A DNA stretch of 14,543 bases, taken from PVC group bacterium (lineage in GTDB: Bacteria > GCA-001730085 > JADFSZ01). The stretch lies in NCBI GenBank assembly GCA_022560555.1, contig JADFSZ010000020.1, positions 1 to 14,543 on the forward strand, given 5' to 3'. Every line of letters begins with the position of its first letter. The stretch's first letter is position 1. Positions 1 to 14,543 of this stretch are shown here, piece by piece. The position numbers and the translations under genes are program-made. The notes beneath the pieces were generated by a model that saw only the letters and a program-made list of their open reading frames with translations, had not been told where the DNA came from and did not search any database.

Positions 1-706
1 CAGCGCGAAATACTTTAAGAATCACTCCAAATGGAATATGCACATCGTCCAATATCGTATGTGCGGGAGGGGCCTTATAAAGGTCCCGGCGGATCGCATA
101 AAGCGCGCCTGTCGCGCCGAGCATAGAGTCAAACCGGGATTCAGATTTCCTCAAAAACTTTTCGTACCGCCAATACATATCCACGCCTTTGGCAAGCGAT
201 GACAAGTTGTCACGTTGAACAAACTCCAGTTCCCCGCTCACGCACCCAACAGCAGGATCCGCAAAATTATCAACAAGGTTACGAACAGCCATCGGATCCA
301 TCATCTCGGCTGCATCCGTAAAAACAATAATGTCCGAATTAAGCGATGACAAGGTTTTGTTAAGCGAGCACATTTTCCCTTCATTCTGTTCATACGCTAA
401 AAGTTTTATTCTGGAGTCCCTAAGAGCATATTCTTCGACAATCGCATGCGTTTGATCTGAAGATCCGTCCGAGGACACCACAAATTCAATTTGATCCCGG
501 GGATAGTCTATTTCCTGGCAATTGTTCAATTTATCCCTCATGACAAACTCTTCATTGTATACAGAAATCACTATAGATACTTTTTTTTGGATAAAGGCTT
601 TTTGAACGGGTCTTCCCGACAAACGTGAACAAACGAAAATCAATAGAGGGTATCCAAGGTAAGTGTATACGATAAATCCGAAGGCGAACCAAAAAAGCCC
701 TGTCAT
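1..706 (-). CDS. Glycosyltransferase family 2, membrane-anchored and synthase-like. Only the N-terminal ~235 aa are present; the gene runs off the window at position 1.
   Basis: Absent from the supplied ORF track because no stop codon falls in the window. Manual reverse-complement translation from the ATG at 706..704 gives MTGLFWFAFGFIVYTYLGYPLLIFVCSRLSGRPVQKAFIQKKVSIVISVYNEEFVMRDKLNNCQEIDYPRDQIEFVVSSDGSSDQTHAIVEEYALRDSRIKLLAYEQNEGKMCSLNKTLSSLNSDIIVFTDAAEMMDP...GATGALYAIRRDLYKAPPAHTILDDVHIPFG, and the frame stays open to position 2. It has an N-terminal hydrophobic helix and GT-A signatures (VSIVISVYNEE, SDGSSD, FTDAA at the DXD position, a later DD). The start overlaps the upstream stop as ATGA (703-706). 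Confidence 0.85.
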   Translation of the reverse strand, partial: MTGLFWFAFGFIVYTYLGYPLLIFVCSRLSGRPVQKAFIQKKVSIVISVYNEEFVMRDKLNNCQEIDYPRDQIEFVVSSDGSSDQTHAIVEEYALRDSRIKLLAYEQNEGKMCSLNKTLSSLNSDIIVFTDAAEMMDPMAVRNLVDNFADPAVGCVSGELEFVQRDNLSSLAKGVDMYWRYEKFLRKSESRFDSMLGATGALYAIRRDLYKAPPAHTILDDVHIPFGVILKVFRA

Positions 707-1488
707 GAGTCCGACCTCATGTGTTGAAAGCGCCGGTACAGTTTGTCATACCGCTTATGTCCGATGAGATTTTGAATCACTTTCTTAAATTGATCCTTTA
801 GACGATTTCTCCACATAATGCCGGGTTTCCTTCTTAGAATATTTTCGAGACAAGTAACACCTGTGTTCTTTCTTATGGCAATACGCGGGATATTAAGAAA
901 CGGTCCCCGGCTGATGTTATCTACAAATTGATATTGACTCGTAAAGATATACTCATATCCTGATTCAAGAGCGATGGTTTGCAGTTCGGGATGTTTTCGT
1001 CCCCCCGGAAGAGACAGCATTTTCACACTCACCGCTAAACGCTCCTCCAGAGTCCGACGGGACTCTTTAAGCTCCTCGGTCAATTCAGAAGTACTTAACA
1101 TGGAAAAAAATCTGTGCGTTAAACCATGGGATCCAATCCCCATCCCCGCGGCCGATATTTCAGCTAAATCCTGCCAACTCATATAACCCGCACAATCTAT
1201 ATGCTCAACGGTGACAAAGAAAACAGCCCGCAAACCACGTTCCTTTAAGATAGGATAAGCCTGAACATAATTATCTTTGTATCCATCATCAAACGTAATC
1301 ACAACGCTCCGGGCCTTTACCTGCTTGGGCCATTCATCCGGAAGCACAACATCCAGAGATTCCCGTTGAATAAGATCAAGATGCCTTAGGAACATCCCCC
1401 TCTCAACAGCATACTCCCTGTCGTAAAGAAGAAGATCGTTCATGCCTATGTGATGATACATCAAAACTGTCGAGCTTAATTTATTCAT
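703..1488 (-). CDS. Polysaccharide deacetylase (NodB homology domain, carbohydrate esterase family 4)
   Basis: 261-aa ORF with an ATG start at 1488. It carries NodB motifs: VITFDDGYKDNY (the TFDDG metal/catalytic Asp motif) and GSHGLTHR (the H-S/T-x-x-H motif). It sits 3 nt after the GT4 stop and overlaps the GT2 start. Confidence 0.9.
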   Translation of the reverse strand: MNKLSSTVLMYHHIGMNDLLLYDREYAVERGMFLRHLDLIQRESLDVVLPDEWPKQVKARSVVITFDDGYKDNYVQAYPILKERGLRAVFFVTVEHIDCAGYMSWQDLAEISAAGMGIGSHGLTHRFFSMLSTSELTEELKESRRTLEERLAVSVKMLSLPGGRKHPELQTIALESGYEYIFTSQYQFVDNISRGPFLNIPRIAIRKNTGVTCLENILRRKPGIMWRNRLKDQFKKVIQNLIGHKRYDKLYRRFQHMRSDS

Positions 1489-1491
1489 ATT

Positions 1492-2679
1492 CTACCCTGC
1501 AGCCTCTTGGTAGACACGGGCCATCTCACGCGCGATTTGCGCCCAATCGTATTTTTCTTCTACAAGCTTTCTCGCGCTTTCGGCTATCCGGAGATAATCA
1601 TCTTTGGATTGTGTCAACAAGGATATTTTTTCAATAAAAGCCTTTGGTGTATCGGCAAGCATAATTTCTTTTTTATCCTCTGCTTCAATTCCTTCGGCTC
1701 CGATCGTTGTGCTCACAACCGGACGACCCAGCGCCATCGATTCCAAAATTTTGATGCGCGTTCCTCCGCCGATACGAATAGGAACAATAAGAATGTCGGC
1801 ATCTAAGAAATACGGACGGATATCCTCCACGTTCTGATACACAGAAATTTTCTCATCCGCAAAATATGTCTTGAGCGAAGAATGGATTTTCCGTCCCACA
1901 ATGGAGCATGTCAACCGAGGTAGTGCTTGCGACAAGCTGCCCCAAATATCCGTAAAAAACCATTTCATCGCGTCAATGTTCGGCCACCAATCTAACGATC
2001 CGATAAAAACCAGTTGTTGAGGTTTTCTCGTATTCATTTGATACGCAAAATCACGGCAATTCACTCCATTTGACGCGACATGAACAGCCCCCTTATGGGA
2101 AAGTTTTTCCAAAAGATTTGCGTCTGTCAGGGAAACCGTGAATACAGCACGGAATTTGTCAATCCGCTCTTTTTCATAAGCCTTCATTTTTGAAGCCTGC
2201 CACTTCACAAAAAACTTCTTAAGGCCAAAAGGCAGCTTTTCACACAATCGCTCAGCAATAATATATTCCACATTATGCTCATCTAAGCAGGCAGGAATAT
2301 CAGGAACAAGATCAACATATTGAGCCATATGTATGTGGTCAAAATGAACAATATCATATTCTCCATCCCTGACTTTCGATTTTAGGACTTCACGCATTTT
2401 CGCGCAATCGTACTTCAAAACCACATACGGCTTTTTCGAAAAAAAAGACATGATCAGGCTCTCAAGCCGGTCCATCCAAGAATTCTTTCTTTTAACGCCG
2501 ATAATTTTCACCTTGCCCAAAAGTTTTTCAAACCCTTCAAGGGTCGCACGATGTCCGGCAAAACCGATCACAGAAACACTATGAAGCGCGCTGAGATTCT
2601 TTATATGGTTATACGTTCTGATTTTCGCGCCGGTATCTATGGGAAAGGGGATCTGAGGGACAACAAAAAGAATTTTCAT
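1492..2679 (-). CDS. Glycosyltransferase family 4 (GT-B fold, Glycos_transf_1 type)
   Basis: 395-aa ORF with an ATG start at 2679. The N-terminus MKILFVVPQIPFPIDTGAKIRTYN is typical of GT4. The C-terminal GGGTRIKILESMALGRPVVSTTIGAEGIE matches the E-x7-E nucleotide-sugar binding signature. Confidence 0.9.
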   Translation of the reverse strand: MKILFVVPQIPFPIDTGAKIRTYNHIKNLSALHSVSVIGFAGHRATLEGFEKLLGKVKIIGVKRKNSWMDRLESLIMSFFSKKPYVVLKYDCAKMREVLKSKVRDGEYDIVHFDHIHMAQYVDLVPDIPACLDEHNVEYIIAERLCEKLPFGLKKFFVKWQASKMKAYEKERIDKFRAVFTVSLTDANLLEKLSHKGAVHVASNGVNCRDFAYQMNTRKPQQLVFIGSLDWWPNIDAMKWFFTDIWGSLSQALPRLTCSIVGRKIHSSLKTYFADEKISVYQNVEDIRPYFLDADILIVPIRIGGGTRIKILESMALGRPVVSTTIGAEGIEAEDKKEIMLADTPKAFIEKISLLTQSKDDYLRIAESARKLVEEKYDWAQIAREMARVYQEAAG

Positions 2680-2699
2680 AAGCCGGTACTATTTTGATG

Positions 2700-3023
2700 T
2701 TATTTTAGCGAGTCTCCAATCCAACTCAGATAGGCCTCATGTCCGGCAATAATAGGTAAAAATAGTATTTCAGGAACTTCGTAGGAATGGACGAGACGTA
2801 CGGCTTCGACAATCTCTTCTTTTTTCTCTTCGATGGATTTCATAATAAGAAGATATTCATCGGCCTTATCAACATGGCCTTGCCACCAATACAGCGATTG
2901 CACGGGACCAACACGGTTTACGCAAGCAACCAGTTTTTTATCAAGAAGCATCCTTGAGATACTTTCAGCCTCTTCTCTTGTGGGAACCGTAACGTAACAA
3001 ACAACATATCCATTGACGGCCAT
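2700..3023 (-). CDS. cutA: Divalent-cation tolerance protein CutA
   Basis: 107-aa ORF. It aligns by eye with E. coli CutA: VTVPTREEAE...KLVACVN...SLYWWQG...YEVPEILFLP...YLSW. An SD-like GGTGTGAGGA lies directly upstream of the ATG at 3023. Confidence 0.9.
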   Translation of the reverse strand: MAVNGYVVCYVTVPTREEAESISRMLLDKKLVACVNRVGPVQSLYWWQGHVDKADEYLLIMKSIEEKKEEIVEAVRLVHSYEVPEILFLPIIAGHEAYLSWIGDSLK

Positions 3024-3033
3024 TCCTCACACC

Positions 3034-3486
3034 TTATTTTTGAAGGTTTGATAGCTGGGACGCCATTTCCATAATCTTTCGATCAAGAGTACTCGCCTCT
3101 TCGTTAAGGCGGTCAATCTCTTTTTCAGCGTCTAAAATAAGGACATTTTTTACCTTATCTCTTCGCCCCATAAGATCGTTGAGTTTTGTCCGAAGATTTT
3201 TGACTTGTATTTCATTCAGATCCGCCTTTATCAGATCCATTTCCTGACTTAACACGCGGATCTTTTGCTGAATGTCGCGAAGAAGCTGTTTTTTCTTCTC
3301 AAGCACCATCCGGTCTTCTTCAGAGAGATCTTCTGTTTTTCCGTCATAAATATTACTGATTTCTTTCTCCAAAATCTCCGCCTGTGTTTCGAGCCCCCCA
3401 ATTTCGGATTCTTTTAGCTTTACTTTCTCCTCCAAATTCTCCAAAGATTGAGCACTTTCATCTTCAACAATATTATCAAACGTCAT
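3034..3486 (-). CDS. Hypothetical acidic coiled-coil protein (150 aa)
   Basis: The ORF is rich in E, K, L and heptad-like periodicity throughout (LENLEEKVKLKESEIGGLETQAEILEKEISN..., LIKADLNEIQVKNLRTKLNDL...). I saw no enzymatic motif, TM helix or signal peptide. Its ATG (3486..3484) overlaps the gltX TGA (3485..3483) as ATGA. Confidence 0.7.
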   Translation of the reverse strand: MTFDNIVEDESAQSLENLEEKVKLKESEIGGLETQAEILEKEISNIYDGKTEDLSEEDRMVLEKKKQLLRDIQQKIRVLSQEMDLIKADLNEIQVKNLRTKLNDLMGRRDKVKNVLILDAEKEIDRLNEEASTLDRKIMEMASQLSNLQK

Positions 3487-4838
3487 CGCCTTTGCTCCCC
3501 ATCGTTAGCCTTGGTCTGAAATGATTTAATGAATTGCAATCCGTATGTCAGGTTTCTTTGGCATCGCTCGGGACCTAAAATCTCCATCACTAAAAAAATA
3601 CTCGGACTAACAGATTTGCCCGTTAAAACCACCCTTAAGGCCTGAAGAAAATCCCGGCTTTTAGTTGAATCATATTTATTGATAAGGGCTCTCGCGGAAA
3701 GCTCGATTTCCTTTGCATGAAACGGAACGATGCTCACTAACGCGTCTGAGACACATTCAATAAAGCCCTCAATCTCTCTATTAAACACTATTTTTTGGCA
3801 TGATGCAATATCATATTGAGGTTCATCAATAAAAAAATAATCCGAGCTTCTCGGCAAATCCTTCATGGTCTTCAGGCGTTCACGAATCAAGCCTATAACT
3901 TTTAGTAAATGCCCCTTGTCATAGGGCGGATCAACATATCCCAATTTGATCCATTCCGGAATAATGATGTTTGTCAGCTGATCTAAAGAACATGTTTTCA
4001 CATAATGAGCATTGATCCATTCGAGTTTTTTCATATCAAAAACAGCGCTCGACTTTCCGATGGCTTTAACCTTAAACTTTTTTATCATTTCAGCTTGTGA
4101 CATTATTTCCTGATTTCCTCCGGGCGACCAGCCTAACAGGCTTAGATAATTCAAGAGGGCTTCGGGCAATATGCCCTCTTTTTTGAAAGCCTCGACAGAA
4201 ACGGCACCATAGCGTTTCGACAAAACAGATCGGGCCTCATTCACAATCAACGGGAGGTGAATGTATTTTGGGGCCTGAAAACCGAGCGCCTTTCCAATGG
4301 CTAACTGTTTCGGTGTGTTTGACAAATGATCATCGCCGCGAAAAACATGTGAAATTGCCATCTCGTGGTCATCAACGGCACACGCAAAATTATACGTCGG
4401 AGTCCCGTCGGATTTCATAATGATAATCTCCGAAAACTCCGAGTTATCAAAAGCAACATCTCCTCTTAAGACATCCCGAACAATCGTTTTTCCCTGAGGA
4501 ACATGCAATACCACGGCCGTTTTTGAACCGTCACAGTATTCGGCCGAACCCATATCAAACAATTTCTCAACTTGCGTTCTATAAAGACTTTTTCTTTTTG
4601 ACTGAAATACCGGCCCCTCGTCCCAATCAAGTCCAAGCCACTGTAAGTGCTTGAGTATGTTCTCGGTTGACTTCCGGCTAGATCTCTCTTGATCCGTGTC
4701 CTCAATCCTGATGATAAAAACCCCGTCTTGGTTTCGCGCGTACAGCCAATTATAAATAGCTGTTCTGGCTCCGCCTATATGAAGCAGGCCTGTAGGACTG
4801 GGGGCAAATCGGACACGAACTGTCGCATCATTATTCAT
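3483..4838 (-). CDS. gltX: Glutamate--tRNA ligase (class I aaRS)
   Basis: It has the HIGH-type signature RVRFAPSPTGLLHIGGARTAIYNWLYAR and the KMSKS-equivalent VLSKR. I place the start at the ATG at 4838 (MNNDATVRVRFAPSPTG), which gives the usual short N-terminus. The track ORF extends to 4898, but that codon is TTG and adds 20 non-conserved residues. The true start is therefore 4838 (preferred) or 4898. Confidence 0.9.
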   Translation of the reverse strand: MNNDATVRVRFAPSPTGLLHIGGARTAIYNWLYARNQDGVFIIRIEDTDQERSSRKSTENILKHLQWLGLDWDEGPVFQSKRKSLYRTQVEKLFDMGSAEYCDGSKTAVVLHVPQGKTIVRDVLRGDVAFDNSEFSEIIIMKSDGTPTYNFACAVDDHEMAISHVFRGDDHLSNTPKQLAIGKALGFQAPKYIHLPLIVNEARSVLSKRYGAVSVEAFKKEGILPEALLNYLSLLGWSPGGNQEIMSQAEMIKKFKVKAIGKSSAVFDMKKLEWINAHYVKTCSLDQLTNIIIPEWIKLGYVDPPYDKGHLLKVIGLIRERLKTMKDLPRSSDYFFIDEPQYDIASCQKIVFNREIEGFIECVSDALVSIVPFHAKEIELSARALINKYDSTKSRDFLQALRVVLTGKSVSPSIFLVMEILGPERCQRNLTYGLQFIKSFQTKANDGEQRR

Positions 4839-4933
4839 GGATGCTTTTCCCACGCAAAACGCACATGGAGTGTGGCAATTTTCATCACGAAACTCCAATA
4901 AGATATAGACATTATGTTCATTCCAAGCTTTGT

Positions 4934-4963
4934 TATATAAATATCTTACGAGTTATATGTCAT
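4934..4963 (-). promoter_or_regulatory. Candidate sigma70-type promoter for gltX
   Basis: The minus strand reads ATGACA (4963..4958), an 18-nt spacer, then TATATA (4939..4934), about 95 nt upstream of the ATG at 4838. Identified by hexamer match only, in an AT-rich gap where such matches arise by chance. Confidence 0.3.
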
Positions 4964-5006
4964 GCGGCCGAATCTTTGGCACATGTTTTGCACGTAACAA
5001 ACACCT

Positions 5007-5078
5007 AAACCGGAGCACTTAGATTAGAGGTTTCCCCTGACGCACCCTAACGCCTCAACCCCTAAGTCTCCGGTTTTT
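5007..5078 (-). terminator. Long imperfect hairpin downstream of ftsA, a possible intrinsic terminator or structured RNA
   Basis: Arms aaaccggagcacttag (5007-5022) and ctaagtctccggttt (5062-5076) are reverse complements apart from one bulged base. The inner segments (cttagattagagg and cctcaacccctaag) can extend the helix with G-U pairs and bulges, leaving an apical region of about 22 nt. On the minus-strand RNA the stem is followed by UUUAGGUGUUUGUU. On the plus strand it is followed by TTTTT (5074-5078). Confidence 0.4.
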
Positions 5079-5097
5079 CATGAAAGCCCGTGCTCCA

Positions 5098-6342
5098 TCA
5101 AAACAAATCACGAAACCAATTTACGACATCATCGCCCCACTGAGACAATCTATTTTTTCGGCGGAACAAAAAGTCACCGCGATTGTTTTGTAAATCAAGC
5201 GCGTATTTAGCGACCCCGATAATGGTCGCATAGCACGGATTACGGATAATCGTATCTAGGCCAATAATATTATGCCCGCTTCCAACACGAACGTAAGTCT
5301 CGAATTCTTCAGCCGCTAAATCCTTAATCCCGCGAATCAAGGCTCCCCCTCCTGTTAAAATCACTCCCGAATTTAAATTTTTATTTAAATGATTTTTTTC
5401 TAATTTTTTGTGAATACTGCAAAAAACCTCTTCTCCCCAACTTTTTATTACACGGCAAAATTCCAGTTTATTAAAAACCGTCGGCGAACTTCGTGAATTC
5501 AAATTAATCGAAACAACTTCAGATTCACTGATATGATCAAGAGCAACATTCGAAAATTTTCTCTTTGTATCTTCGGCCATATCCCGCGTTAACCGGAACT
5601 GGCTTGATATCCTTTCCGTCAAATCATCCCCTCCCATCGGAAGAATTTCCGAATAAGTCAAAAATCCGTTTTGAAAACAGGTGATCGTGGTTGTCCCGGC
5701 ACCCAAATTAATCACAACACTTCCCAATTCGCGCTCTTCAGATGTGGTCACGATTTGAGAACATGCCAAGGCTCCAAAAACAAGCTCCCGGATTTCAACA
5801 CCCGTCCGCTGCACAGCTTTAATCAGATTTTGAATAGGATTGGTTGAAGCCGTGATGACATGAACACAAGCTTCAATCGTGTCCGCCCTCATACCAAAAG
5901 GATTCCGTACTCCCTGCATACCGTCAACGGCAAACCCACGCAGCACAGTGTGTATGATTTCCCGATTATCCGGAAGTGGAACCTGGTTGGAGAGATGGAT
6001 CGCTTGATTAATGTCCCTGTAGGTAACTTCTTGATGACTGTTATCCAGATGGTAATGTCCGGAATTGTTCACCCCCACAATATGCGGCCCGTTCACAGTT
6101 AAATACACAGCTTCCGTTTCAACTCCGGCTAAATCCTCGGCTTCTTCAAGGGAACAAATGACAGCGTTAACAACATCATCCATATCAATGACGATGCCTT
6201 GCTTCACGCCTCGTGAATCCGTTGCCCCCGTTCCAAGAATATTAACCTGACCATTCTCGTCTTCAAACGCGATAATACTGTAGACGGTGTTAGATCCGAT
6301 ATCAATCCCGGCAACGTATTTCCGTGTATGTTTCGTTCGCAC
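5098..6342 (-). CDS. ftsA: Cell division protein FtsA (actin/HSP70-fold ATPase)
   Basis: 414-aa ORF. Motifs include the phosphate-1 motif VAGIDIGSNTV, NLGAGTTTIT, and GVILTGGGALIRGIKDLAAEEF (FtsA-type adenosine motif). The C-terminal amphipathic segment DDVVNWFRDLF resembles the FtsA membrane-targeting helix. The start is GTG at 6342..6340, preceded by AGGAG with an 8-nt spacer. Confidence 0.9.
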   Translation of the reverse strand: MRTKHTRKYVAGIDIGSNTVYSIIAFEDENGQVNILGTGATDSRGVKQGIVIDMDDVVNAVICSLEEAEDLAGVETEAVYLTVNGPHIVGVNNSGHYHLDNSHQEVTYRDINQAIHLSNQVPLPDNREIIHTVLRGFAVDGMQGVRNPFGMRADTIEACVHVITASTNPIQNLIKAVQRTGVEIRELVFGALACSQIVTTSEERELGSVVINLGAGTTTITCFQNGFLTYSEILPMGGDDLTERISSQFRLTRDMAEDTKRKFSNVALDHISESEVVSINLNSRSSPTVFNKLEFCRVIKSWGEEVFCSIHKKLEKNHLNKNLNSGVILTGGGALIRGIKDLAAEEFETYVRVGSGHNIIGLDTIIRNPCYATIIGVAKYALDLQNNRGDFLFRRKNRLSQWGDDVVNWFRDLF

Positions 6343-6350
6343 CCGTAAAG

Positions 6351-6355
6351 CTCCT
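6351..6355 (-). promoter_or_regulatory. Shine-Dalgarno sequence of ftsA
   Basis: Plus-strand ctcct corresponds to AGGAG on the minus strand, 8 nt upstream of the GTG start at 6342. It is the strongest SD in the window. Confidence 0.6.
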
Positions 6356-6362
6356 AACCTTT

Positions 6363-6857
6363 TTATTTCCCCAAAAGACCGCGCTCCTGAAACTCCCGGA
6401 TTCGAGACGCGAGCGATCGGCGAAATTCAACTAAATTATCCTGAACGATACTCATTTCTGCTCGACTCATTCTTCGCTTCTTCGTCTTAGGGATAAATGA
6501 GTCGTACATAAGAGCTCCGTCCTCCAATATCCGCTCATGACGCGGATAATAATTTTTAAGCGTCCGCAACTCCTTGCCCGCGCGTCTCAAAAAACCAGCA
6601 TCTCGTTTTAAGTTATTTCCAAAATTTTTCTCCAATTCCCCCTGATAATATTTCCAGCGATTCACATGCTCGCTTTTCTCTCGATCCTCTTGGGTATAAG
6701 GCATTCTAATCTTCACCTGTTGTTTGGGAATAATTTTTTTCTTCTTACTCGCTGCCGCTTTACGGCCCCTGTACGCGCAAGCATGATTTGGAGCTACCAT
6801 CATCGCGAGCAAGACAAAAAGGAATAGCATCAGTATAGTTCGGGTTTTTCTAGTCAT
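6363..6857 (-). CDS. Hypothetical secreted, highly basic protein (164 aa)
   Basis: The N-terminus MTRKTRTILMLFLFVLLAMMVAPNHACA-YR has the n/h/c regions of a Sec signal peptide and an AxA-type cleavage site. The mature part is K/R-rich (AAASKKKKIIPKQQVKIR, KTKKRRMSR) and I recognise no motif in it. Its ATG at 6857 overlaps the upstream gene's end (6850) by 8 nt. Confidence 0.7.
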   Translation of the reverse strand: MTRKTRTILMLFLFVLLAMMVAPNHACAYRGRKAAASKKKKIIPKQQVKIRMPYTQEDREKSEHVNRWKYYQGELEKNFGNNLKRDAGFLRRAGKELRTLKNYYPRHERILEDGALMYDSFIPKTKKRRMSRAEMSIVQDNLVEFRRSLASRIREFQERGLLGK

Positions 6858-8337
6858 CGTTCTCTTCCTTCATCTGCGACTCGATTCTTTTTATCCCGTT
6901 TTTATCAAGAACAAGACGCAAACGGCGATATTGATTTCTTTCCTTGGCGCAAAACCTTAAAACGATGTTGACATGATACACGCGCTTGCCGGGTATAACT
7001 TGATAGTCCTCGTCATTGAGAACATAAATGTCCGTCACAGGGTCATCCATATATTTAAGCAAATAAGCCACGTTAAATCGCATAATATCCGAGAGGCCGA
7101 AAACAGGGTATCCTTTTTTGGGGATTCTTTTAGAATACAAGCGAATAACTTTTTGGTAAGTTAAAATGTTTTCTCCGTTTGCTTCGTTATCCATCGACGT
7201 GATATGATCCATATTCCGAATACGCAAAATCTCGGCGGGAACATCCTTTCGCCTGACAAAACGAAACATTTCCGAACATACCCCGAGTCGTCCCCGCTTT
7301 TTCAGGTCATAGATAAACGTGCGGATATCATAGAAGCGAGTGATAAATTTATTCTGGATATAATTTCTCATAAAATCTTTCAAACGATCCTTAAACATAT
7401 ACCCGACAACAAGCGCGATAAAGAAAGGCAGGGTAAAATCACCGTATTTTTTCTGGAATAAAAACGCGATAACCGTCGCGACAATCATGGCACATCCCGC
7501 GGCAACGGCATACGCGGCTTCTTTGGCAATTTTAGGCTCTTTGATACTGCGAATCGTTAAAAACAAAATATTGGATATGTGCTTTTTTAAAACACTTCGT
7601 CGGAAGATAAGCTGCTCATTATCTCCGTTTACATCCGGGGCCAGCGGATAGCCGGAATCTTTCCGGTAGCTTATCTCAGAACGTAATAAATCCATAATGG
7701 GCCCTTTAACTTTCAAACAGTCGGATTTTTTTGTATTTTCAACCAGCCGGACTAATCGGTAGGAATACTCTTCCACAAGATAGCTGACATATTCGTCCGT
7801 GTATTGAAGCATCTGTTTCATATGCCGCGTACGCACAATACGTTTATCCAAGTCATGTTTCAGAAGACGCCATACATGCAATATTTTTTTAATTTGACGC
7901 GCATAATTTGCGGCCTCCTCTGTCTCAATTTCTTTATGCCTATCTCGAAGACCCTCAACATAATCTCTAAGCGTACTTTTCATGATACAACCGAACATTT
8001 TAATGTGATACTCCAAAGCATCCGTAAGATTGTCCTGCATTTCCAATTCCTGCCATTGACCCAAAATGAGCAGCGGGCTTGCGGATGAAGTCAGGATATC
8101 CCCCATCGTCATCTTTGGGGTTTTAAATCTGATATACCCGTGCACATCATTGATAAAATCGGTTTTCTTGTACGTGGCTTGGTTAATATTTAAATGATAG
8201 GGAATAAAAAAGAAGGCATCAACTTGATATGAAGTCACTTTTTCATGAGAATTGAGAGGGTAATCAATTTTAATCTCAAACTGATTTCGGTCATGAACCC
8301 GTATAGATGCATCCTTAAAAAACTCTTGCGCAATCAC
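6850..8337 (-). CDS. Hypothetical membrane protein (495 aa) with a central two-TM hairpin flanked by large soluble domains
   Basis: Long uninterrupted ORF with a GTG start at 8337..8335; there is no in-frame ATG for about 75 codons. The two hydrophobic helices are AAYAVAAGCAMIVATVIAFLF and FTLPFFIALVVGYMF (aa ~274-315, nt ~7393-7518). The ~270-aa N-terminal region looks helical. The ~175-aa basic C-terminal region looks beta-rich (VYHVNIVLRF, RLRLVLDKNG). I could find no Walker, HExxH, GxSxG or other catalytic motif. Confidence 0.75.
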   Translation of the reverse strand: MIAQEFFKDASIRVHDRNQFEIKIDYPLNSHEKVTSYQVDAFFFIPYHLNINQATYKKTDFINDVHGYIRFKTPKMTMGDILTSSASPLLILGQWQELEMQDNLTDALEYHIKMFGCIMKSTLRDYVEGLRDRHKEIETEEAANYARQIKKILHVWRLLKHDLDKRIVRTRHMKQMLQYTDEYVSYLVEEYSYRLVRLVENTKKSDCLKVKGPIMDLLRSEISYRKDSGYPLAPDVNGDNEQLIFRRSVLKKHISNILFLTIRSIKEPKIAKEAAYAVAAGCAMIVATVIAFLFQKKYGDFTLPFFIALVVGYMFKDRLKDFMRNYIQNKFITRFYDIRTFIYDLKKRGRLGVCSEMFRFVRRKDVPAEILRIRNMDHITSMDNEANGENILTYQKVIRLYSKRIPKKGYPVFGLSDIMRFNVAYLLKYMDDPVTDIYVLNDEDYQVIPGKRVYHVNIVLRFCAKERNQYRRLRLVLDKNGIKRIESQMKEENDD

Positions 8338-8372
8338 TTTTGATTATCCCGGTCTGCTTTAGTTAAACATAA

Positions 8373-8406
8373 ATTGCATTATATCACTGCAGGGTCATAA
8401 TGCAAT
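8373..8406. repeat. Perfect 10-bp inverted repeat with a 14-nt spacer
   Basis: attgcattat (8373-8382) and ataatgcaat (8397-8406) are exact reverse complements separated by atcactgcagggtc. One arm contains the -35 hexamer above and the other overlaps the -10 hexamer. Confidence 0.8.
8378..8405 (-). promoter_or_regulatory. Candidate sigma70-type promoter for the 495-aa gene
   Basis: The minus strand reads TTGCAT (8405..8400), a 16-nt spacer, then a consensus TATAAT (8383..8378), about 40 nt upstream of the GTG at 8337. It lies in the 90-bp gap after the GT-C-like gene. Confidence 0.45.
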
Positions 8407-8427
8407 GCCTTGGTGCAGCAGCAACGC

Positions 8428-10206
8428 CTATTTCCTTGTCGAATTGATTTTTTTCTCGATGGTATCCAAAAGTTTTTTTGCTTTTTCATACTCCGGTGCT
8501 AGAGCATGCGCTTTTTCAAAATATGATTTGGCAAGATTAACATCTTGATGATTGAGCCAATAAATCCCGAGGTTCACATAGGCCCCTACATAATACGGGT
8601 CCACCTTTAGGGCTCGTTCCCATAAAACTTTTGCCTCTTGCCCAGAACCATCTAAGGCCATCTCGACACCCTTTTCCGTCAGACTTCTCGCGCTCCAGCC
8701 CCAAAAGGGGGTCTGCCGTTTCCTAAGAATAATGTCCGGCGTAATGAATCCGAGTTCAACACATCTCGTAATGAGTGAATCCTTCCAATCCCAAAGCCGC
8801 TCGGGCTTCTTGTCAATGTCAACAGGACTGCTGTTCCATCTTCCGATTTCAAACGAGAAGGCCCCGACAGCCTGTACGGCAATGGAAAAAATAACACAGA
8901 AAATAAAAATATATTTTAAATATTTTTTCGCGAAAATATCATGGATGACAAAAACGAAAAAGAAGCATATCAACGGAAGTAAATCGGCAGAATATCTTAA
9001 GCCAAACGACCAACCGGCCCACCACGCATGAAAACGACTGTACCAGAGAAAGACAATCGCAAGCGCAACTATCAATATTCGATAAAACAAAACCCCCTTT
9101 TTCCAGGCCCGTACCATCCCCCACACGGAAAAAATCAGAAACGGTGTAAACAAAAAAACCCCCCGGCTCGGGCTTACGAATATCCCCAAAAGACCTTTCA
9201 GCATGTTTCCCGACATCACACTTTTTCCTCCCAAATTATATAGTGTAGCTGTCGCGCCCGTTTCGGACATGAGCTTTCGGTATCCGCCCAAAACTGAGTC
9301 AAAATAGATCATGTTATAGATCAAATAGGGCAAAACGGTTATCAAAAACGCGCCCAAAATCCAAAACGACTTTTTCTTATAATTCCACATGAGGTAAGGA
9401 AGCCATATCAAAGCAATCAAAAAATCATTCGGCCGAGACATCACAGCGCAGGCCAAAGCAACACCAACCCACGGCAATAAGCCGACTTTGCCGTCTTTAA
9501 CCTGAAGTGTTAACAAGAGGGATAAACATAAAAATAACGCGCTCGGTCCATGCTGCCAAGCGGCTTGAGAACTAATCGCCCATGTTAATGTCCCAAAGGC
9601 ATATATCAGAGCCAAAAACACAGCGTATCTAAGAGGGACGTAAAGAGTAAAGATATAAAACAAGAGAACGACCGAAACGGAAACCCAAAAACTTGCGCTA
9701 AATTTTGCCAGGAGATCCACCACGGGCCGATTGATGGGATCAAGCCCCTTCATAAGAGGAAGAATATAAAATGGCGTGTTGATGATGCCGGGGAATACCG
9801 GCGAACTTGAAACAACATGCCCCCGGCCTCTTTGGATAAAATAGGGCAGTTCTTTTTCTTCGGCATCCCAAAGAAAATCAAACTCATCTAAATCCAAATT
9901 AAATTCTTTCAAAATCGATATCGGAATATACCGATTAGGAACCGTATCGTTTCCGCTATACTCTCTGAGGTTGATATTATAAACAACAAGGCATAATAGA
10001 AATAAAATAAGTCCCCATTTTTTCCGGCAGCGTACGTTCGGACGGGGCAACCGGAAGGTGTCCGTACGCGATGGAACGCAAGCCTTACGATAGGCGTGAA
10101 CATCTTTATGAGAACAATTCAAAACTCTTGCCATTTGGCGAACGGACTTGTTCTGATAGTGGTCCTCAATATACTTTTTGTCTTGCTTATTTAATTCACG
10201 TGACAT
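8428..10206 (-). CDS. Polytopic membrane protein: N-terminal HTH-like segment, ~12-TM GT-C-fold-like (ArnT/PMT-type) core, and C-terminal TPR repeats
   Basis: 592-aa ORF with an ATG start at 10206. Residues 5-42 (LNKQDKKYIEDHYQNKSVRQMARVLNCSHKDVHAYRKA) follow the sigma70-region-4/LuxR-type HTH pattern. About 12 hydrophobic helices follow, with an acidic first loop (SGNDTVPNRY...DLDEFDFLWDAEEKE), as in GT-C enzymes. The C-terminus GQEAKVLWERALKVDPYYVGAYVNLGIYWLNHQDVNLAKSYFEKAHALAPEYEKA is a clear TPR. The GT-C assignment rests on architecture and the loop motif only. Confidence 0.75.
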   Translation of the reverse strand: MSRELNKQDKKYIEDHYQNKSVRQMARVLNCSHKDVHAYRKACVPSRTDTFRLPRPNVRCRKKWGLILFLLCLVVYNINLREYSGNDTVPNRYIPISILKEFNLDLDEFDFLWDAEEKELPYFIQRGRGHVVSSSPVFPGIINTPFYILPLMKGLDPINRPVVDLLAKFSASFWVSVSVVLLFYIFTLYVPLRYAVFLALIYAFGTLTWAISSQAAWQHGPSALFLCLSLLLTLQVKDGKVGLLPWVGVALACAVMSRPNDFLIALIWLPYLMWNYKKKSFWILGAFLITVLPYLIYNMIYFDSVLGGYRKLMSETGATATLYNLGGKSVMSGNMLKGLLGIFVSPSRGVFLFTPFLIFSVWGMVRAWKKGVLFYRILIVALAIVFLWYSRFHAWWAGWSFGLRYSADLLPLICFFFVFVIHDIFAKKYLKYIFIFCVIFSIAVQAVGAFSFEIGRWNSSPVDIDKKPERLWDWKDSLITRCVELGFITPDIILRKRQTPFWGWSARSLTEKGVEMALDGSGQEAKVLWERALKVDPYYVGAYVNLGIYWLNHQDVNLAKSYFEKAHALAPEYEKAKKLLDTIEKKINSTRK

Positions 10207-10234
10207 GGATCAACTCTTCACCCATAAGTTGGCA

Positions 10235-10780
10235 TTATCTATTTCTCTTCGGGAGACCTTTTTTCTTGAGGAATAATCTGTTTGAGTTATGATCGATAAA
10301 ACCGTCATATTTTGACAAAACATCCTCACCTAAGATACCGGCTACGCCCGGCCTTCTGTTTTGGAAAGGATCCGGAATAATCCAAATCCTAAATTTTCCC
10401 AGAAAAACATTCTCACCCAATACAAAATCATTAATGATCGCCCCCAGGCCTGTCGTCTGCCCGGAGATACCGGAAAAGACGGCCTTGCGTCCGGTCAGTA
10501 TCACATCATACTTTTCTTGCGCGCTGCTGGAAAGAACGGATGATGTTGCCCCTGTATCCAAAAGAAATTTTGTTTTATGCCCGTTAATCGACACATTTAA
10601 AAAAAAGGCGTTCCCATCTTTTTCGAGAGGAATTTCGACATAATCACGCGTCGAAATCCTTAAGCTTTGATGCCCGCCGAAACCAGCCTCAGCAGAATGA
10701 GAAAACAGCACACACTGAAACACAAAACAAAAGAGGACATCATAAATCAAAACACGACAATGGTTTGATTTGTTAAACAT
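10235..10780 (-). CDS. Secreted retropepsin-like (clan AA) aspartic protease
   Basis: 181-aa ORF with a hydrophobic N-terminus ending SHSAEA-G, which is signal-peptide-like. It has the catalytic motif FLLDTGATSSVLS (D-T-G-A) after VSINGHKTK, and the downstream GILGEDVLSKY...RLFL typical of bacterial single-domain retropepsins (gag-polyprotein-like aspartyl protease family). The start lies 2 nt after the upstream stop. Confidence 0.85.
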   Translation of the reverse strand: MFNKSNHCRVLIYDVLFCFVFQCVLFSHSAEAGFGGHQSLRISTRDYVEIPLEKDGNAFFLNVSINGHKTKFLLDTGATSSVLSSSAQEKYDVILTGRKAVFSGISGQTTGLGAIINDFVLGENVFLGKFRIWIIPDPFQNRRPGVAGILGEDVLSKYDGFIDHNSNRLFLKKKGLPKRNR

Positions 10781-10782
10781 AT

Positions 10783-12900
10783 CTAAATCCTTTCTCCGGT
10801 AAAAGGGTTGAATCGATAATGCGCAAACAGATACCAGATGGTCGGAGCTACCGCAAGTTTATCGTCGGATAAAGCCCACCCGCCGTAAGCCGGCGTCCCC
10901 GCGTTACTCGCTTGAGGCAGGGCCAAAGTTGAACGATAATTTTGACTTTCTGTTAACGCACTTTCTACTTCCTTCAAATAATACGCGCCTTCAGATTCGC
11001 GAGCCACAGAAAAATAAGCAAGAGCCATCTGCGCTGTGCCCTCAAACCAAACGGTATCCTTGTCAGGATAAGGACCGTCAGCATACGTCGCGCCAAAATC
11101 AAATCCATCCACCCAAACACCTTTCAAAGAATAATATTTCTGATTTCGGCTTTTCTTTACGGCAAAATCTAAGGTTTCATTATAATCGCTGCCAAGAACA
11201 AGAACGGCCCAACTTGAAACATCCGTTGCATAATTCAAATCATTCTCACCCAAATTAAACCGATTTTCATGCTCGTTCCAAGCCACATTTTTCAGCCATT
11301 GGTGAACTTTTGATGCCGCGTTTTCAAATCTTTTTTCATGTGTTAATGCAGCCAATCCCTTGAGAGCCGCATAACAATCCAAGTTATGTTCCGTACTCGT
11401 CCATGGCATTTTCTTCTTCCTTGTTTCATATCCTCCGGTAATACCACCGTTATCTTTTTGTAAACCACGGAGCCAATCGGCAATCTCTTGGGCAAGATTC
11501 ATATATTTTTTGTCCTGAGTCGCCCGGGTATAATACGTAATCGCCATAAGCAGCCACGCGTTCGGTCCGGCCGCTTTCTTTTGATCGGACCAACCGTTCG
11601 TTCGATAAAAATCGGAAAACCCGTTAAAACGCCCAAACTTCTCTATTTGCTCATCCAATGCATCGTAATAAAAATTCAATATCTGACGCGCCTTAGGTAA
11701 TTGCCCGGTCAAGACATATAGCATTCCCCCCAAAGCCTGATCATAAGTATAACAATCCACGCTCCCTTCATAATTCGCAATAAGAGGGTATGCTTCCTCC
11801 ATCCATGCGGCTCTTGACTGATGCTGCGCCATGATCCAGTCAAATGTTTTCTTTGCATAAAAATTTGATGGTTTTAAATCCTTTAGAACATCCGCATCCC
11901 TCCCTTCATTCCGCTGAGGCCACAAAGATACAAAATCGACTGCATGTATTTTGGATTTTGAGGCTACACTAGATTTGTCCAACACAAGCTCCCCTCCCTG
12001 TTTTAACCCAAGAACAATCTTCGTGTCGTTTTCACGAACAATATCTCCAACCAAGCGGTTGCCGTTAGACAGGATAATTTCATCAATCGTCTCTAGGGAG
12101 AGCTCCTCATGGGCACTATCCCCAAGCAAATCTTTTTTAAGACCGATCAGTTCAGTGTCGATTTGTGTCATGCGCGCCGCAAGTTCAATTTTTTCCTGAT
12201 GAATATATTCAATCGTTTTTTCTAACTCAAGCTCCTTTTCCTGAAAATACAAAATTTGAGCTTGAAGCAACTGAAACGAATCACTGTCACTCTCGCTCAA
12301 GCTCAGGGCCTCTTGCTCGGTTTTGTTAATGTGCTCTCTTAATTGCTCCAGCTCTTTTATTTGAATGGATGAGCTGTACTCTAAAGCAGCATAATTCTTT
12401 TCTACGGAACCTTTTTTCTGAATGAGAACGGATATCTCTCCTTCAAGACCCCGAATACGATCCTGATATTTACCTACATATATGGCTGACACAATGACAC
12501 TTAAAATAAAGAAAATAGAAACGGCCGCGAGTCCATATCGATACCAGCGACGTCTTTTGGCAAATTGCCATAAACGCCGGCTGTACTCAGGCCGTATGTT
12601 TTGATATTCGATACCCATTAAAAGAGCGTCTTTAGAGGACAGCCAACGGATGATCCCGCTCGCTTTAATCGTCCCCCGGCCATGATCATCAATTTCCAAA
12701 TTGACAGTTTGACCTATGCCGAAGTCCAAAGGGTCAAAAGCTTTCAGCTCAAGACAAAGGCCGGTTTTACTGATGTTTTGGGTAAATCCTTGGATAAAGA
12801 GGGATTCTTTTGTGGACTTTGACAAGGGAAAATAGAAAATGCCGACAGGGAAAACAGTATCCATTCGTACATACTGCCGCTTGTCCTCGGGCTTCATCAT
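10783..12900 (-). CDS. PilZ domain / TM helix / coiled coil / small beta segment / C-terminal (alpha/alpha)6-toroid glycosidase-like domain protein (705 aa)
   Basis: Both PilZ c-di-GMP motifs are present: RQYVR (RxxxR, aa 8-12) and NISKTG (D/NxSxxG, aa 42-47). The TM helix YGLAAVSIFFILSVIVSAIYVG (aa ~122-143) is preceded by KRRRWYR. Heptad-rich sequence spans aa ~145-260. The C-terminal ~360 aa has repeated helical-hairpin signatures (YDQALGGMLYVL, GPNAWLLMAITYY, WTSTEHNLDCYAALKGLA, ATDVSSWAVLVLG, FEGTAQMALAYF, VAPTIWYLFAHY) reminiscent of six-hairpin glycosidase, epimerase or lyase folds. Its ATG overlaps the cysS TGA as ATGA (12897-12900). Confidence 0.85.
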   Translation of the reverse strand: MMKPEDKRQYVRMDTVFPVGIFYFPLSKSTKESLFIQGFTQNISKTGLCLELKAFDPLDFGIGQTVNLEIDDHGRGTIKASGIIRWLSSKDALLMGIEYQNIRPEYSRRLWQFAKRRRWYRYGLAAVSIFFILSVIVSAIYVGKYQDRIRGLEGEISVLIQKKGSVEKNYAALEYSSSIQIKELEQLREHINKTEQEALSLSESDSDSFQLLQAQILYFQEKELELEKTIEYIHQEKIELAARMTQIDTELIGLKKDLLGDSAHEELSLETIDEIILSNGNRLVGDIVRENDTKIVLGLKQGGELVLDKSSVASKSKIHAVDFVSLWPQRNEGRDADVLKDLKPSNFYAKKTFDWIMAQHQSRAAWMEEAYPLIANYEGSVDCYTYDQALGGMLYVLTGQLPKARQILNFYYDALDEQIEKFGRFNGFSDFYRTNGWSDQKKAAGPNAWLLMAITYYTRATQDKKYMNLAQEIADWLRGLQKDNGGITGGYETRKKKMPWTSTEHNLDCYAALKGLAALTHEKRFENAASKVHQWLKNVAWNEHENRFNLGENDLNYATDVSSWAVLVLGSDYNETLDFAVKKSRNQKYYSLKGVWVDGFDFGATYADGPYPDKDTVWFEGTAQMALAYFSVARESEGAYYLKEVESALTESQNYRSTLALPQASNAGTPAYGGWALSDDKLAVAPTIWYLFAHYRFNPFTGERI

Positions 12901-14441
12901 AATTGCATACTTGAGATAAGCTCGCTCATTTTTTGATGTGAATTATCCGCTCGCTCCGAGTAAGACGCGACAGTATAATGTTTATCTTCGCCGACTCCCG
13001 GCTTTTTATCTTCGATATCCATATCCGGAAATAATTTTACAAGCTCGTCTCGGATGTCATCAGCCCGATTCCAGTTTTTATCGTCTTTCGCACGGAGACG
13101 CATTTCAAGAAGTTGTCGAATTCCCTCTTTGAGTGGATCCTGACACACAACATCACTTACCACAATAATGCGCCCCGATTGAAATATATTGAGAATTTTT
13201 GACGCTTCATTAAAAAACCCAAATCCCTGTTTTACAAGCAAATATGTGTTTTTAGTGACACTCTCTGCCAAAATTTGATTGAGATCACGAATCAAAGAGA
13301 ACAAAACCCCGATGGCTTTGGGTGTATTAAAATCATCATTCATGGCCGCGGAAAATTCCTCATGATATTTTTTAATCTCCCCAACACGATCGCGAACTTG
13401 TGAATCCATAGAACAGGTGCGCTCAAGATACACTTGCACGTTTTTACTAAATTCATACCCGCGCTTGATCTGCTCATGAATGCCTTCGATCTGCTCGAGA
13501 GAAAAATCGATCGGGCTCCTATAATGCGTGGCCATAATAAAGAATCTTATATCCTCTGGCGGGTATTTTTTAAATAGTTCTGTAAGGGAAAAATAATTTT
13601 TGAGCGATTTGGACATTTTCTTTTTTTCGACGTTGACAAAACCGTTGTGAAGCCAATATTTCGCAAAAAGTTTTTTTGAGCATCCTTCCGACTGAGCGAT
13701 CTCGTTTTCATGATGGGGAAAGGTCAGATCCATTCCGCCTCCATGGATATCAAACGAAACGCCCAGATAATGCGTGGCCATGGCCGAACATTCAATATGC
13801 CACGCGGGCCGGCCCGCTCCCCACGGGCTTTCCCATGAAGGCTCCTGGGGCTTTGCTTTCTTCCACAAGACAAAATCGAGAGGATCTCTCTTTTTCCTAT
13901 CTTTCTCAACACGCGCGCCAATCAAAAGGTCATCGAGATTCTTCTTGGATAATTTACCGTAGGCATGAAATGTTTTTACGGAAAAATACACGTCTCCGTC
14001 AACATCATAAGCCATCTCCTTGCGGATGAGATCCCCTATCATCTCTTGCATGTGTTGAATATGTTCCGTGGCTTTTGGATAATGATCCGCCCGGGCGACA
14101 CCTAAAGCATCCATTTGGGAAAAATAAAGATTTGTATATTTTTCAGTGATCGCTTTTGTGTGCTCAATAAGGGACATTTTTTTATTTTTTTCATGTTCTG
14201 TAACAGCCTTTTTAATAATTTTATCATCGATATCCGTAAAATTCTGGACATAAGTCACCTTGTAGCCAAGATGCCTTAAGTATCGACGCATCATGTCAAA
14301 GGTCACATAAACTCTGCCGTGACCTAAATGACACTCATCATAAACAGTAACACCACACACATACATCCGCACGTGATCAGATTCTATTGGCTCGAAAATC
14401 TCTTTTTTACGCGCCAACGTATTATAAACGTAGAGACTCAT
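12897..14441 (-). CDS. cysS: Cysteine--tRNA ligase (class I aaRS)
   Basis: 514-aa ORF with an ATG start at 14441. Motifs include the HIGH region MYVCGVTVYDECHLGHGR, the zinc/cysteine-binding region GRPAWHIECSAMA, HGGGMDLTFPHHENEIAQSE, and KMSKS (KKKMSKSLKNY). Confidence 0.95.
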   Translation of the reverse strand: MSLYVYNTLARKKEIFEPIESDHVRMYVCGVTVYDECHLGHGRVYVTFDMMRRYLRHLGYKVTYVQNFTDIDDKIIKKAVTEHEKNKKMSLIEHTKAITEKYTNLYFSQMDALGVARADHYPKATEHIQHMQEMIGDLIRKEMAYDVDGDVYFSVKTFHAYGKLSKKNLDDLLIGARVEKDRKKRDPLDFVLWKKAKPQEPSWESPWGAGRPAWHIECSAMATHYLGVSFDIHGGGMDLTFPHHENEIAQSEGCSKKLFAKYWLHNGFVNVEKKKMSKSLKNYFSLTELFKKYPPEDIRFFIMATHYRSPIDFSLEQIEGIHEQIKRGYEFSKNVQVYLERTCSMDSQVRDRVGEIKKYHEEFSAAMNDDFNTPKAIGVLFSLIRDLNQILAESVTKNTYLLVKQGFGFFNEASKILNIFQSGRIIVVSDVVCQDPLKEGIRQLLEMRLRAKDDKNWNRADDIRDELVKLFPDMDIEDKKPGVGEDKHYTVASYSERADNSHQKMSELISSMQL

Positions 14442-14543
14442 GGGATAATGATTGAGGGTTAGTGTAAAGGATTTTTAAGATATGGGAACCAATGGGTCTA
14501 TCCATAACCTTTGATACTATTTTTCATCAAACGAACCAATACG

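Follow-up and report, generated by a model that had tools for sequence, protein, structure and literature searches.

Exopolysaccharide (EPS) systems such as Bcs, Alg and Pel often join a receptor for cyclic di-GMP (c-di-GMP), a glycosyltransferase and a periplasmic hydrolase, and the translationally coupled trp genes of Escherichia coli encode subunits of one enzyme or pathway. The locus compared here with such systems lies in a stretch of 14,543 nucleotides (nt) from a PVC group bacterium (contig JADFSZ010000020.1 of assembly GCA_022560555.1, positions 1 to 14,543 of the forward strand; the whole stretch is hereafter called the window), in which the cysteine--tRNA ligase gene cysS is followed by genes A, B and C, predicted to encode a PilZ-type c-di-GMP receptor with an (alpha/alpha)6 toroid domain, a retropepsin-like protease and a membrane glycosyltransferase of the GT-C fold. 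A first-pass annotation had proposed that these three genes are co-transcribed and partly co-translated with cysS, and that their products form a self-contained extracytoplasmic glycan or glycoprotein remodelling system with c-di-GMP as the control point. Our analysis points, as the probable explanation, to ordinary gene packing, namely that the window belongs to an extended run of genes, all on one strand and 97% coding, within the compact genome of a member of the Omnitrophota (PVC group), that cysS and genes A, B and C share one transcript there, and that the trio is lineage-specific and makes up no conserved system.

Gene packing and conservation of the cysS array

The gene junctions were found as the first-pass annotation had given them. 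The cysS reading frame ends in CAA TTA TGA and the ATG of gene A stands in TTATGATG, so that stop and start share a 4-nt ATGA overlap at 12897-12900 on the minus strand; genes A and B meet at 10780/10783 as TAG-at-ATG with a 2-nt gap, and genes B and C are separated at 10206/10235 by 28 nt with the purine-rich run GGGTGAAGAG. Since the RxxxR motif of its PilZ domain begins at residue 8, the start of gene A has a leeway of one codon at most. The sequence at the cysS/gene A overlap reads ...gcaattATGAtgaag, with no Shine-Dalgarno-like run 5′ of it, and gene A is without the purine-rich run that is present 5′ of gene B, gene C, the 164-amino-acid (aa) gene, ftsA, the 150-aa gene and cutA. A promoter or terminator consensus was sought at the cysS-A-B-C junctions and none was found there, and terminator-like sites were not enriched in the scan (19 found versus 14.6 ± 4.2 expected). 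Given the gaps of −4, 2 and 28 nt and junctions free of consensus promoters and terminators, co-transcription is likely, and cysS and genes A, B and C very probably constitute one transcription unit, as judged from the sequence. Coupling of gene A to cysS by termination and reinitiation is plausible because gene A has no Shine-Dalgarno sequence of its own: ribosomes finishing cysS at its TGA would begin again at the ATG that overlaps it, and gene A is probably translated by such reinitiation.

Tight packing with stop/start overlap is the style of this genome. All open reading frames (ORFs) of at least 150 aa in the window lie on the minus strand, the coding fraction is 0.969, and the gaps at the 12 co-directional junctions are 75, −4, 2, 28, 90, −8, 20, 199, −4, 10, 20 and 3 nt, with overlaps at three of the 12, two of these three being of the ATGA type. 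The second ATGA overlap (3483-3486) joins the stop of gltX, the other aminoacyl-tRNA synthetase (aaRS) gene, to the start of the 150-aa coiled-coil gene, and the genes downstream of it encode this unrelated coiled-coil protein, CutA and an EPS-like GT4/CE4/GT2 set. Likewise, 13 of 19 junctions are at most 2 nt long on the 1.5-Mb Omnitrophica contig L001, where the tightly joined genes are functionally mixed (YjbQ, chorismate-binding, aminotransferase, transglutaminase-like, M48 peptidase, PilZ, HhH-GPD and M28 peptidase). The ATGA overlap at cysS is thus not beyond chance and genome style. The first-pass proposal of co-transcription and coupled translation therefore stands as plausible, from the spacing and the missing Shine-Dalgarno sequence, but it singles out nothing at cysS, as gltX shows the same ATGA in a genome segment that is 97% coding.

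Conservation of the trio was examined in 170 loci holding 6573 ORFs, i.e. 80 genome loci round GT-C relatives (±10 kb), 80 metagenome loci round toroid relatives (±8 kb) and 10 further loci from exact look-ups, with gene A, its PilZ part, its toroid part, gene B, gene C and cysS as tblastn queries. Searching the 80 GT-C loci with A, B and cysS gave no match; outside the species, a homologue of gene A or gene B was found near gene C relatives in none of 80 loci, and a homologue of gene B or gene C near gene A relatives in none of 88. Among the 170 loci, A occurred together with C in L008 only, a 3-kb same-species contig of 96-98% identity, and gene B was likewise found by tblastn in L008 only; a phmmer search with gene B combined with a DTGA...GxD motif scan over the 6573 ORFs had the same outcome. 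Locus L090, from a 97% identical strain, keeps gene C, the 90-nt gap behind it and the next three genes. No relatives of A, B or C between 46% and 96% identity were present in the protein databases searched. Only in this lineage are A, B and C neighbours of one another and of cysS; the trio is not a conserved system, and any functional cooperation of its products is conjectural. The self-contained remodelling system was accordingly not borne out, the partner genes being absent from all 88 A-family and all 80 GT-C loci outside the species, and the synteny in related genomes on which the first-pass annotation had staked it was seen in same-species contigs only, with no relatives of 46-96% identity to compare.

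In L008 (GCA_022561295.1, JADFRM010000235.1:1-247, compared with window positions 12300-12760), homology does not begin before about residue 155 of gene A. Ahead of it, the contig opens with 246 nt of unrelated AT-rich sequence (about 25% GC) that has an open frame on the other strand, and the junction is without the PilZ and transmembrane (TM) part of gene A and without cysS; either a chimera made in assembly or a genuine rearrangement could account for it.

Predicted products of genes A, B and C and their recurrent partners

The coordinates of the array and of the domains of its products are collected in Table 1. In gene A both c-di-GMP motifs are intact, R8QYVR12 (RxxxR) and N42ISKTG47 (NxSxxG), and from the positive-inside rule we infer that its PilZ domain is cytoplasmic and its C-terminal part periplasmic. 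Gene A would thus be a c-di-GMP receptor of Alg44-like topology, with the PilZ domain connected through the TM helix and a periplasmic coiled coil to a glycosidase-like domain. By sequence, gene A found weak matches to coiled-coil proteins only in the PDB; by structure, the toroid had 331 Foldseek matches in the PDB at E ≤ 1e-3, led by GH76 mannanases, AGE/cellobiose-2-epimerases and the mannan hydrolase MmpH at a template modelling (TM) score of about 0.6. Its relatives numbered 1336 at E ≤ 1e-3 among 1.84 billion representatives, and Y386, G445, E504 (in WTSTEHNLD), D560 and E620 are invariant in 57 toroid sequences. The Pfam search revealed no family model of the toroid's own, gene A having a marginal Prenyltrans match (E 0.005, below cutoff) and four of the 57 relatives marginal GH76 matches, and neither the Pfam nor the PDB sequence searches placed the toroid in a defined GH family. 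Fold and motifs are observed, from which an activity of gene A would be deduced.

The toroid recurs in two settings. Both PilZ motifs were present in 35 PilZ-fused relatives among the proteins examined, and 33 of these 35 have a TM helix at about residues 120-160; the PilZ-TM-coiled coil-(alpha/alpha)6 architecture comprises at least 35 clusters at 50% identity, and the source-named relatives are labelled Omnitrophica. The closest toroid-domain relatives (42-46% identity) are without PilZ and reside in sugar-utilisation clusters with GH2, GH35/42, GH94, PF10091, CBM30, LacI and ABC sugar transporter genes, and other relatives combine the toroid with CBM11, CBM56, dockerin and fn3 domains. One PilZ-less relative (L006:314-14000, 44% identity) lies in a glycan-utilisation cluster amid genes for a PF10091 ‘glycoamylase’, CBM30/CBM11, ABC sugar transport, GH35/42 and a GH94 phosphorylase, a setting from which a glucan-type substrate may be guessed for the unclassified (alpha/alpha)6 family.

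Directly upstream of the PilZ-toroid genes, a DUF3857/transglutaminase-core gene (about 790 aa) was identified in 16 of 28 loci and a small tetratricopeptide repeat (TPR) gene (about 125-140 aa) in 15 of 28, counted by single-query tblastn over loci whose upstream flank measured 3.5 kb or more; an M48 peptidase gene was also present in eight loci, and all these numbers are lower bounds. Omnitrophota PilZ-TM-(alpha/alpha)6 genes with this upstream set are found at L001:4108-10061, L003:5229-9989, L089:5099-10025 and in 13 metagenome loci. The DUF3857/transglutaminase, TPR and PilZ-toroid genes form a conserved, undescribed gene set. A literature search for fusions of PilZ with DUF3857 or with a six-hairpin or toroid domain, including a survey of PilZ architectures, did not find this architecture described, which is not proof of novelty; judged by sequence, the PilZ-TM-(alpha/alpha)6 family would be an undescribed type of predicted c-di-GMP receptor.

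Gene B matched PF13650 (Asp_protease_2; 5.7e-11, 43.4 bits versus a cutoff of 24.3) and also PF13975 and PF00077, and carries the motifs D75TGA and G151EDVL behind an N-terminal hydrophobic, signal-like segment ending AEA|G. Its TIGR02281 score was 26.4, under the cutoff of 57.95, and its PDB matches at about 1e-3 were 9iy9 (‘exported protein’) and Rickettsia ApRick 5c9b. Among 5.8 billion proteins, no relative was found beyond a 96% identical same-species copy. The single retropepsin-like domain with DTGA implies an obligate homodimer, and gene B is predicted to be a secreted retropepsin-like aspartic protease that would need to dimerize for activity.

The AlphaFold2 (AF2) model of gene C (predicted local distance difference test (pLDDT) 80.3) shows about 11-12 TM helices, with a TPR at the C-terminal end. 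Its 12 best Foldseek matches were all GT-C enzymes (E 1e-4 to 1e-2), with TM scores of only 0.35-0.42 and with STT3, PglB, AglB, ALG9, ALG3, DPY19 and PimE at the top. Gene C itself had no Pfam glycosyltransferase match and no PDB sequence match for the GT-C profile, and in NCBIfam a weak match to the putative LA_3751/LA_3752 glycosyltransferase (23 bits versus 200); its homologues P0013, P0014, P0019 and P0022 carry PF13231 (PMT_2), and P0027 carries PF03901 (GT22). The family motifs are N-x-N-LR-x-I-x-SGDT-x-P, SSQxxWQHG, SPSRG, W395 and R404, and D87 in the first-loop SGDTxP, conserved in at least 90% of 24 family members, provides the acidic residue of the first extracytoplasmic loop. The gene falls in a GT-C clade of its own that is unannotated and widespread: its 372 genome hits, of which the best is only 39% identical, are spread over Rokubacteria, Binatia, Bryobacteraceae, Nitrospirae, Planctomycetota, Omnitrophota, Methanosarcina and Methanothrix. 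The 111 co-directional neighbouring ORFs of its relatives were a heterogeneous set, in which GT2 (5), UbiA (4), EamA (4), TMEM234 (3) and GT87 (2) genes were commonest and no protease, PilZ or toroid gene occurred. GT2, UbiA and EamA neighbours are typical for enzymes using lipid-linked sugars, and by analogy gene C is predicted to be a GT-C glycosyltransferase that presumably uses a polyprenyl-phosphate-linked sugar donor, with its TPR on the periplasmic side. At its N-terminus gene C carries a cytoplasmic extension of about 60 aa (MSRELNKQDKKYIEDHYQNKSVRQMARVLNCSHKDVHAYRKA; residues 1-45 at 10072-10206), which is confined to this species and the 97% relative; the alignment showed it in none of the 22 other family members. 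A helix-turn-helix reading of these 45 residues was rejected, with a low-confidence model there and no profile match.

Table 1. The cysS-A-B-C array and the domains of its products, in transcription order (window coordinates; pTM, predicted TM score)
Feature	Position	Strand	Basis
End of the upstream gene, first in transcription order	stop at 14517	minus	
cysS, cysteine--tRNA ligase, 514 aa	12897..14441	minus	TIGR00435 2.5e-155; PF01406 2.6e-126; DALR_2
Gene A, 705 aa: PilZ, one TM helix, coiled-coil linker, (alpha/alpha)6 domain	10783..12900	minus	
Gene A, PilZ domain, residues 7-113	12562..12882	minus	PF07238 2.7e-09, 37.7 bits versus cutoff 22.5
Gene A, predicted single TM helix, about residues 122-143	12475..12537	minus	sequence; basic KRRRWYR just before
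Gene A, Leu/Glu-rich coiled-coil linker and small domain, residues 143-349	11854..12474	minus	composition
Gene A, (alpha/alpha)6 toroid, glycosidase-like, residues 350-705	10786..11853	minus	AF2 pLDDT 89.9, pTM 0.91
Gene B, 181 aa: predicted secreted single-domain retropepsin-like aspartic protease	10235..10780	minus	
Gene C, 592 aa: predicted GT-C-fold membrane glycosyltransferase, C-terminal TPR	8428..10206	minus	
Gene C, TPR region, about residues 506-590	8437..8691	minus	TPR_2 1.9e-05, below cutoff; helical repeats in model, TPR fold matches

Alternative readings and the rest of the window

Several observations weigh against ordinary packing of a lineage-specific trio. The products of A, B and C are all extracytoplasmic or envelope proteins and two of them are glycan-related, so a shared role is not implausible, and spacings of −4, 2 and 28 nt are those of true operons. 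Moreover, the orders A-B-C (in L008) and C-D-E-ftsA (in L090; D and E are the two genes next to C) recur in independent samples, a recurrence that carries no evolutionary weight because these sequences are 96-97% identical; and a module confined to this Omnitrophota family or order may exist, as genomes of 50-90% identity are absent from the comparison. A rival reading, which develops the first-pass view, is a dedicated c-di-GMP-controlled system for periplasmic glycan or glycoprotein remodelling, in which the GT-C enzyme would build or transfer a glycan, the toroid would trim it and the protease would mature a component, with constitutive expression provided by cysS and post-translational control by PilZ. 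We regard this system as unlikely. Its tight spacing and translational overlap, the predicted action of all three products outside the cytoplasm, the intact PilZ motifs and the habit of EPS systems to join a receptor, a glycosyltransferase and a hydrolase have to be set against a lack of synteny in the 168 related loci outside the species and against other recurrent partners for both the PilZ-toroid and the GT-C families; gene B, furthermore, is without detectable relatives save same-species copies, no polyprenyl-phosphate-sugar synthase or flippase adjoins gene C, and gltX shows the same coupling with unrelated genes. Distinctly improbable, in our estimate, is the bolder proposal that PilZ-TM-coiled coil-(alpha/alpha)6 proteins constitute an undescribed inside-out effector class, in which c-di-GMP switches a periplasmic glycan-hydrolysing or glycan-binding domain, and that in this species one of them was recruited beside the GT-C/TPR and retropepsin genes as a cysS-driven, c-di-GMP-gated envelope-glycan operon.

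The single transcript that ordinary packing supposes has a rival of its own, namely that the downstream genes are driven mainly by internal promoters, for example in the 3′ end of cysS, and that the overlap is a by-product of compaction. A weak sigma-70-like sequence, ATGACA-18-AATTAT, does occur some 130 nt 5′ of the gene A start (13060-13031, minus), but it matches at nine of 12 positions and is one of 45 such sites in a scan where 29.7 ± 5.2 are expected by chance. Genes B and C have Shine-Dalgarno-like runs of their own, whereas gene A has none and overlaps the cysS stop. Homology of L008 from about residue 155 of gene A onwards would fit a downstream part that can exist detached from cysS, yet this junction rests on 246 nt of foreign-looking sequence of about 25% GC and may be an assembly chimera. 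Internal promoters as the main drive are hardly likely on this balance, and one transcript from cysS through gene C is preferred. The operon itself is of little weight; the gene A family is the most interesting part of the locus, and the analysis yielded as by-products a large (alpha/alpha)6 family, found in glycan-utilisation loci and for which no Pfam or CAZy-type assignment was found here, and a widespread unannotated GT-C clade with clear motifs.

The first sizeable gap follows gene C (8338-8427, 90 nt) and holds, in agreement with the first-pass annotation, a promoter-like element and a palindrome. The former reads TTGCAT-16 nt-TATAAT with the extended −10 TGATATAAT (8378-8386, minus), and TGNTATAAT has its single occurrence in the window in this gap, with 0.6 expected over the whole window and both strands. 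The palindrome spans 34 nt (8373-8406), with 17-nt arms that are 82% complementary and a perfect 10/10 core, ATTGCATTAT/ATAATGCAAT, and overlaps the −35 and −10 elements of the promoter-like site; in strain L090 the gap is identical but for one base. From its sequence, the promoter-like element probably serves the next genes (495-aa, 164-aa and ftsA-like), adding transcription, and the palindrome is a possible operator over their predicted promoter. The palindrome was rejected as an intrinsic terminator, with an RNA fold z of 0.60 (no better than shuffles), an AT-rich stem and no terminator-scan match.

Past gene C, the order of transcription is the 495-aa protein, the 164-aa protein, the ftsA-like gene, gltX, the 150-aa coiled-coil protein, cutA, a GT4 glycosyltransferase, a CE4 polysaccharide deacetylase and a GT2 gene. 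GC is even over the whole window (0.39-0.47), and no island signature was detected when signals of horizontal transfer were sought in it. An Rfam search at E ≤ 1 and a tRNA scan of the window returned nothing relevant, with no riboswitch or leader 5′ of cysS or in the gaps. The best matches in the databases, at 96% identity, are proteins of a metagenome-assembled genome labelled ‘PVC group bacterium’, and remoter relatives are labelled Candidatus Omnitrophica. The cysS protein has a tail of about 34 aa past its family model. The ftsA-like gene (FtsA and SHS2 domains; 5098-6342, minus) is followed by the 199-nt gap and gltX, not by ftsZ, and ahead of it stand the two unknown envelope proteins without Pfam or NCBIfam match, the 495-aa one with central TM helices and the 164-aa one with a signal-like N-terminus. 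The listed TTG start of gltX (4838-4898) adds about 20 residues before the conserved N-terminus and has no Shine-Dalgarno sequence; the true start is probably the ATG at about 4838 (MNNDATVRVRF...), with which the upstream gap would grow to about 260 nt. Downstream of gltX and cutA, the EPS-like set (1-2679, minus) comprises the GT4 gene, which is stp1-like (TIGR03087 1.5e-65, yet below cutoff), the CE4 deacetylase with PgaB/PdaB-like matches, and the GT2 gene, whose N-terminus lies near 708 and which continues past the window start.

Comparison with described systems

No signature of BcsA/B/Z, Alg8/44, PelA-G, Psl or PgaA-D was found among A, B and C in NCBIfam and Pfam, and the lone PgaB-like match in the window belongs to the separate CE4 gene (703-1488). 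The first-pass annotation could not match the trio to Pel, Psl, Bcs, Alg or Pga, which our searches confirmed, with no NCBIfam match to any of these systems for A, B or C.

The closest likeness of gene A is to Alg44, the alginate co-polymerase and c-di-GMP receptor of Pseudomonas aeruginosa, whose architecture is taken here as described in bioRxiv 10.1101/814665. Both have an N-terminal cytoplasmic PilZ domain with RxxxR and D/NxSxxG motifs, then a single TM helix and a periplasmic helical domain, which would imply inside-out c-di-GMP signalling. Unlike Alg44, gene A has a coiled coil and an (alpha/alpha)6 toroid in the periplasm instead of an HlyD/MFP (membrane fusion protein)-like domain, no adjacent Alg8-type GT2 gene, and no sequence similarity outside PilZ. 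If functional, the PilZ-TM-coiled coil-(alpha/alpha)6 architecture would give transmembrane c-di-GMP signalling of the Alg44 type a further output, a glycosidase-like domain in the periplasm. The toroid shares its (alpha/alpha)6 barrel with BcsZ (GH8), Listeria PssZ and the GH76, MmpH and AGE-superfamily enzymes, with structural matches to 6u4z (GH76), 8h1l, 2zbl and 7qsj (MmpH) at TM scores of about 0.57-0.66; compared with these enzymes, it is only 9-14% identical to solved structures, and it is membrane-tethered and fused to PilZ.

Gene C shares with the GT-C enzymes PglB/STT3, ALG9/ALG3, PimE and ArnT/PMT (PF13231) the multi-pass fold and the first-loop acidic residue, D87, and its C-terminal TPR resembles that of TMTC-type GT-C enzymes. 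Gene B has in common with Rickettsia APRc/ApRick, the clan AA family TIGR02281 and Caulobacter PerP a single retropepsin-like domain, DTGA and an N-terminal signal or anchor; it differs from them in scoring under the TIGR02281 cutoff and in having no relatives beyond the species.

The junction of cysS and gene A resembles those of trpE-trpD and trpB-trpA of E. coli (UGAUG/AUGA overlaps) in its 4-nt stop/start overlap and in a gene A without its own Shine-Dalgarno sequence. Whereas the trp pairs encode parts of one enzyme or pathway, the coupled products here, an aaRS and an envelope protein, are functionally unrelated. In compact Omnitrophota genomes, stop/start overlap and operon membership thus do not equal shared function, even beside an essential aaRS gene.

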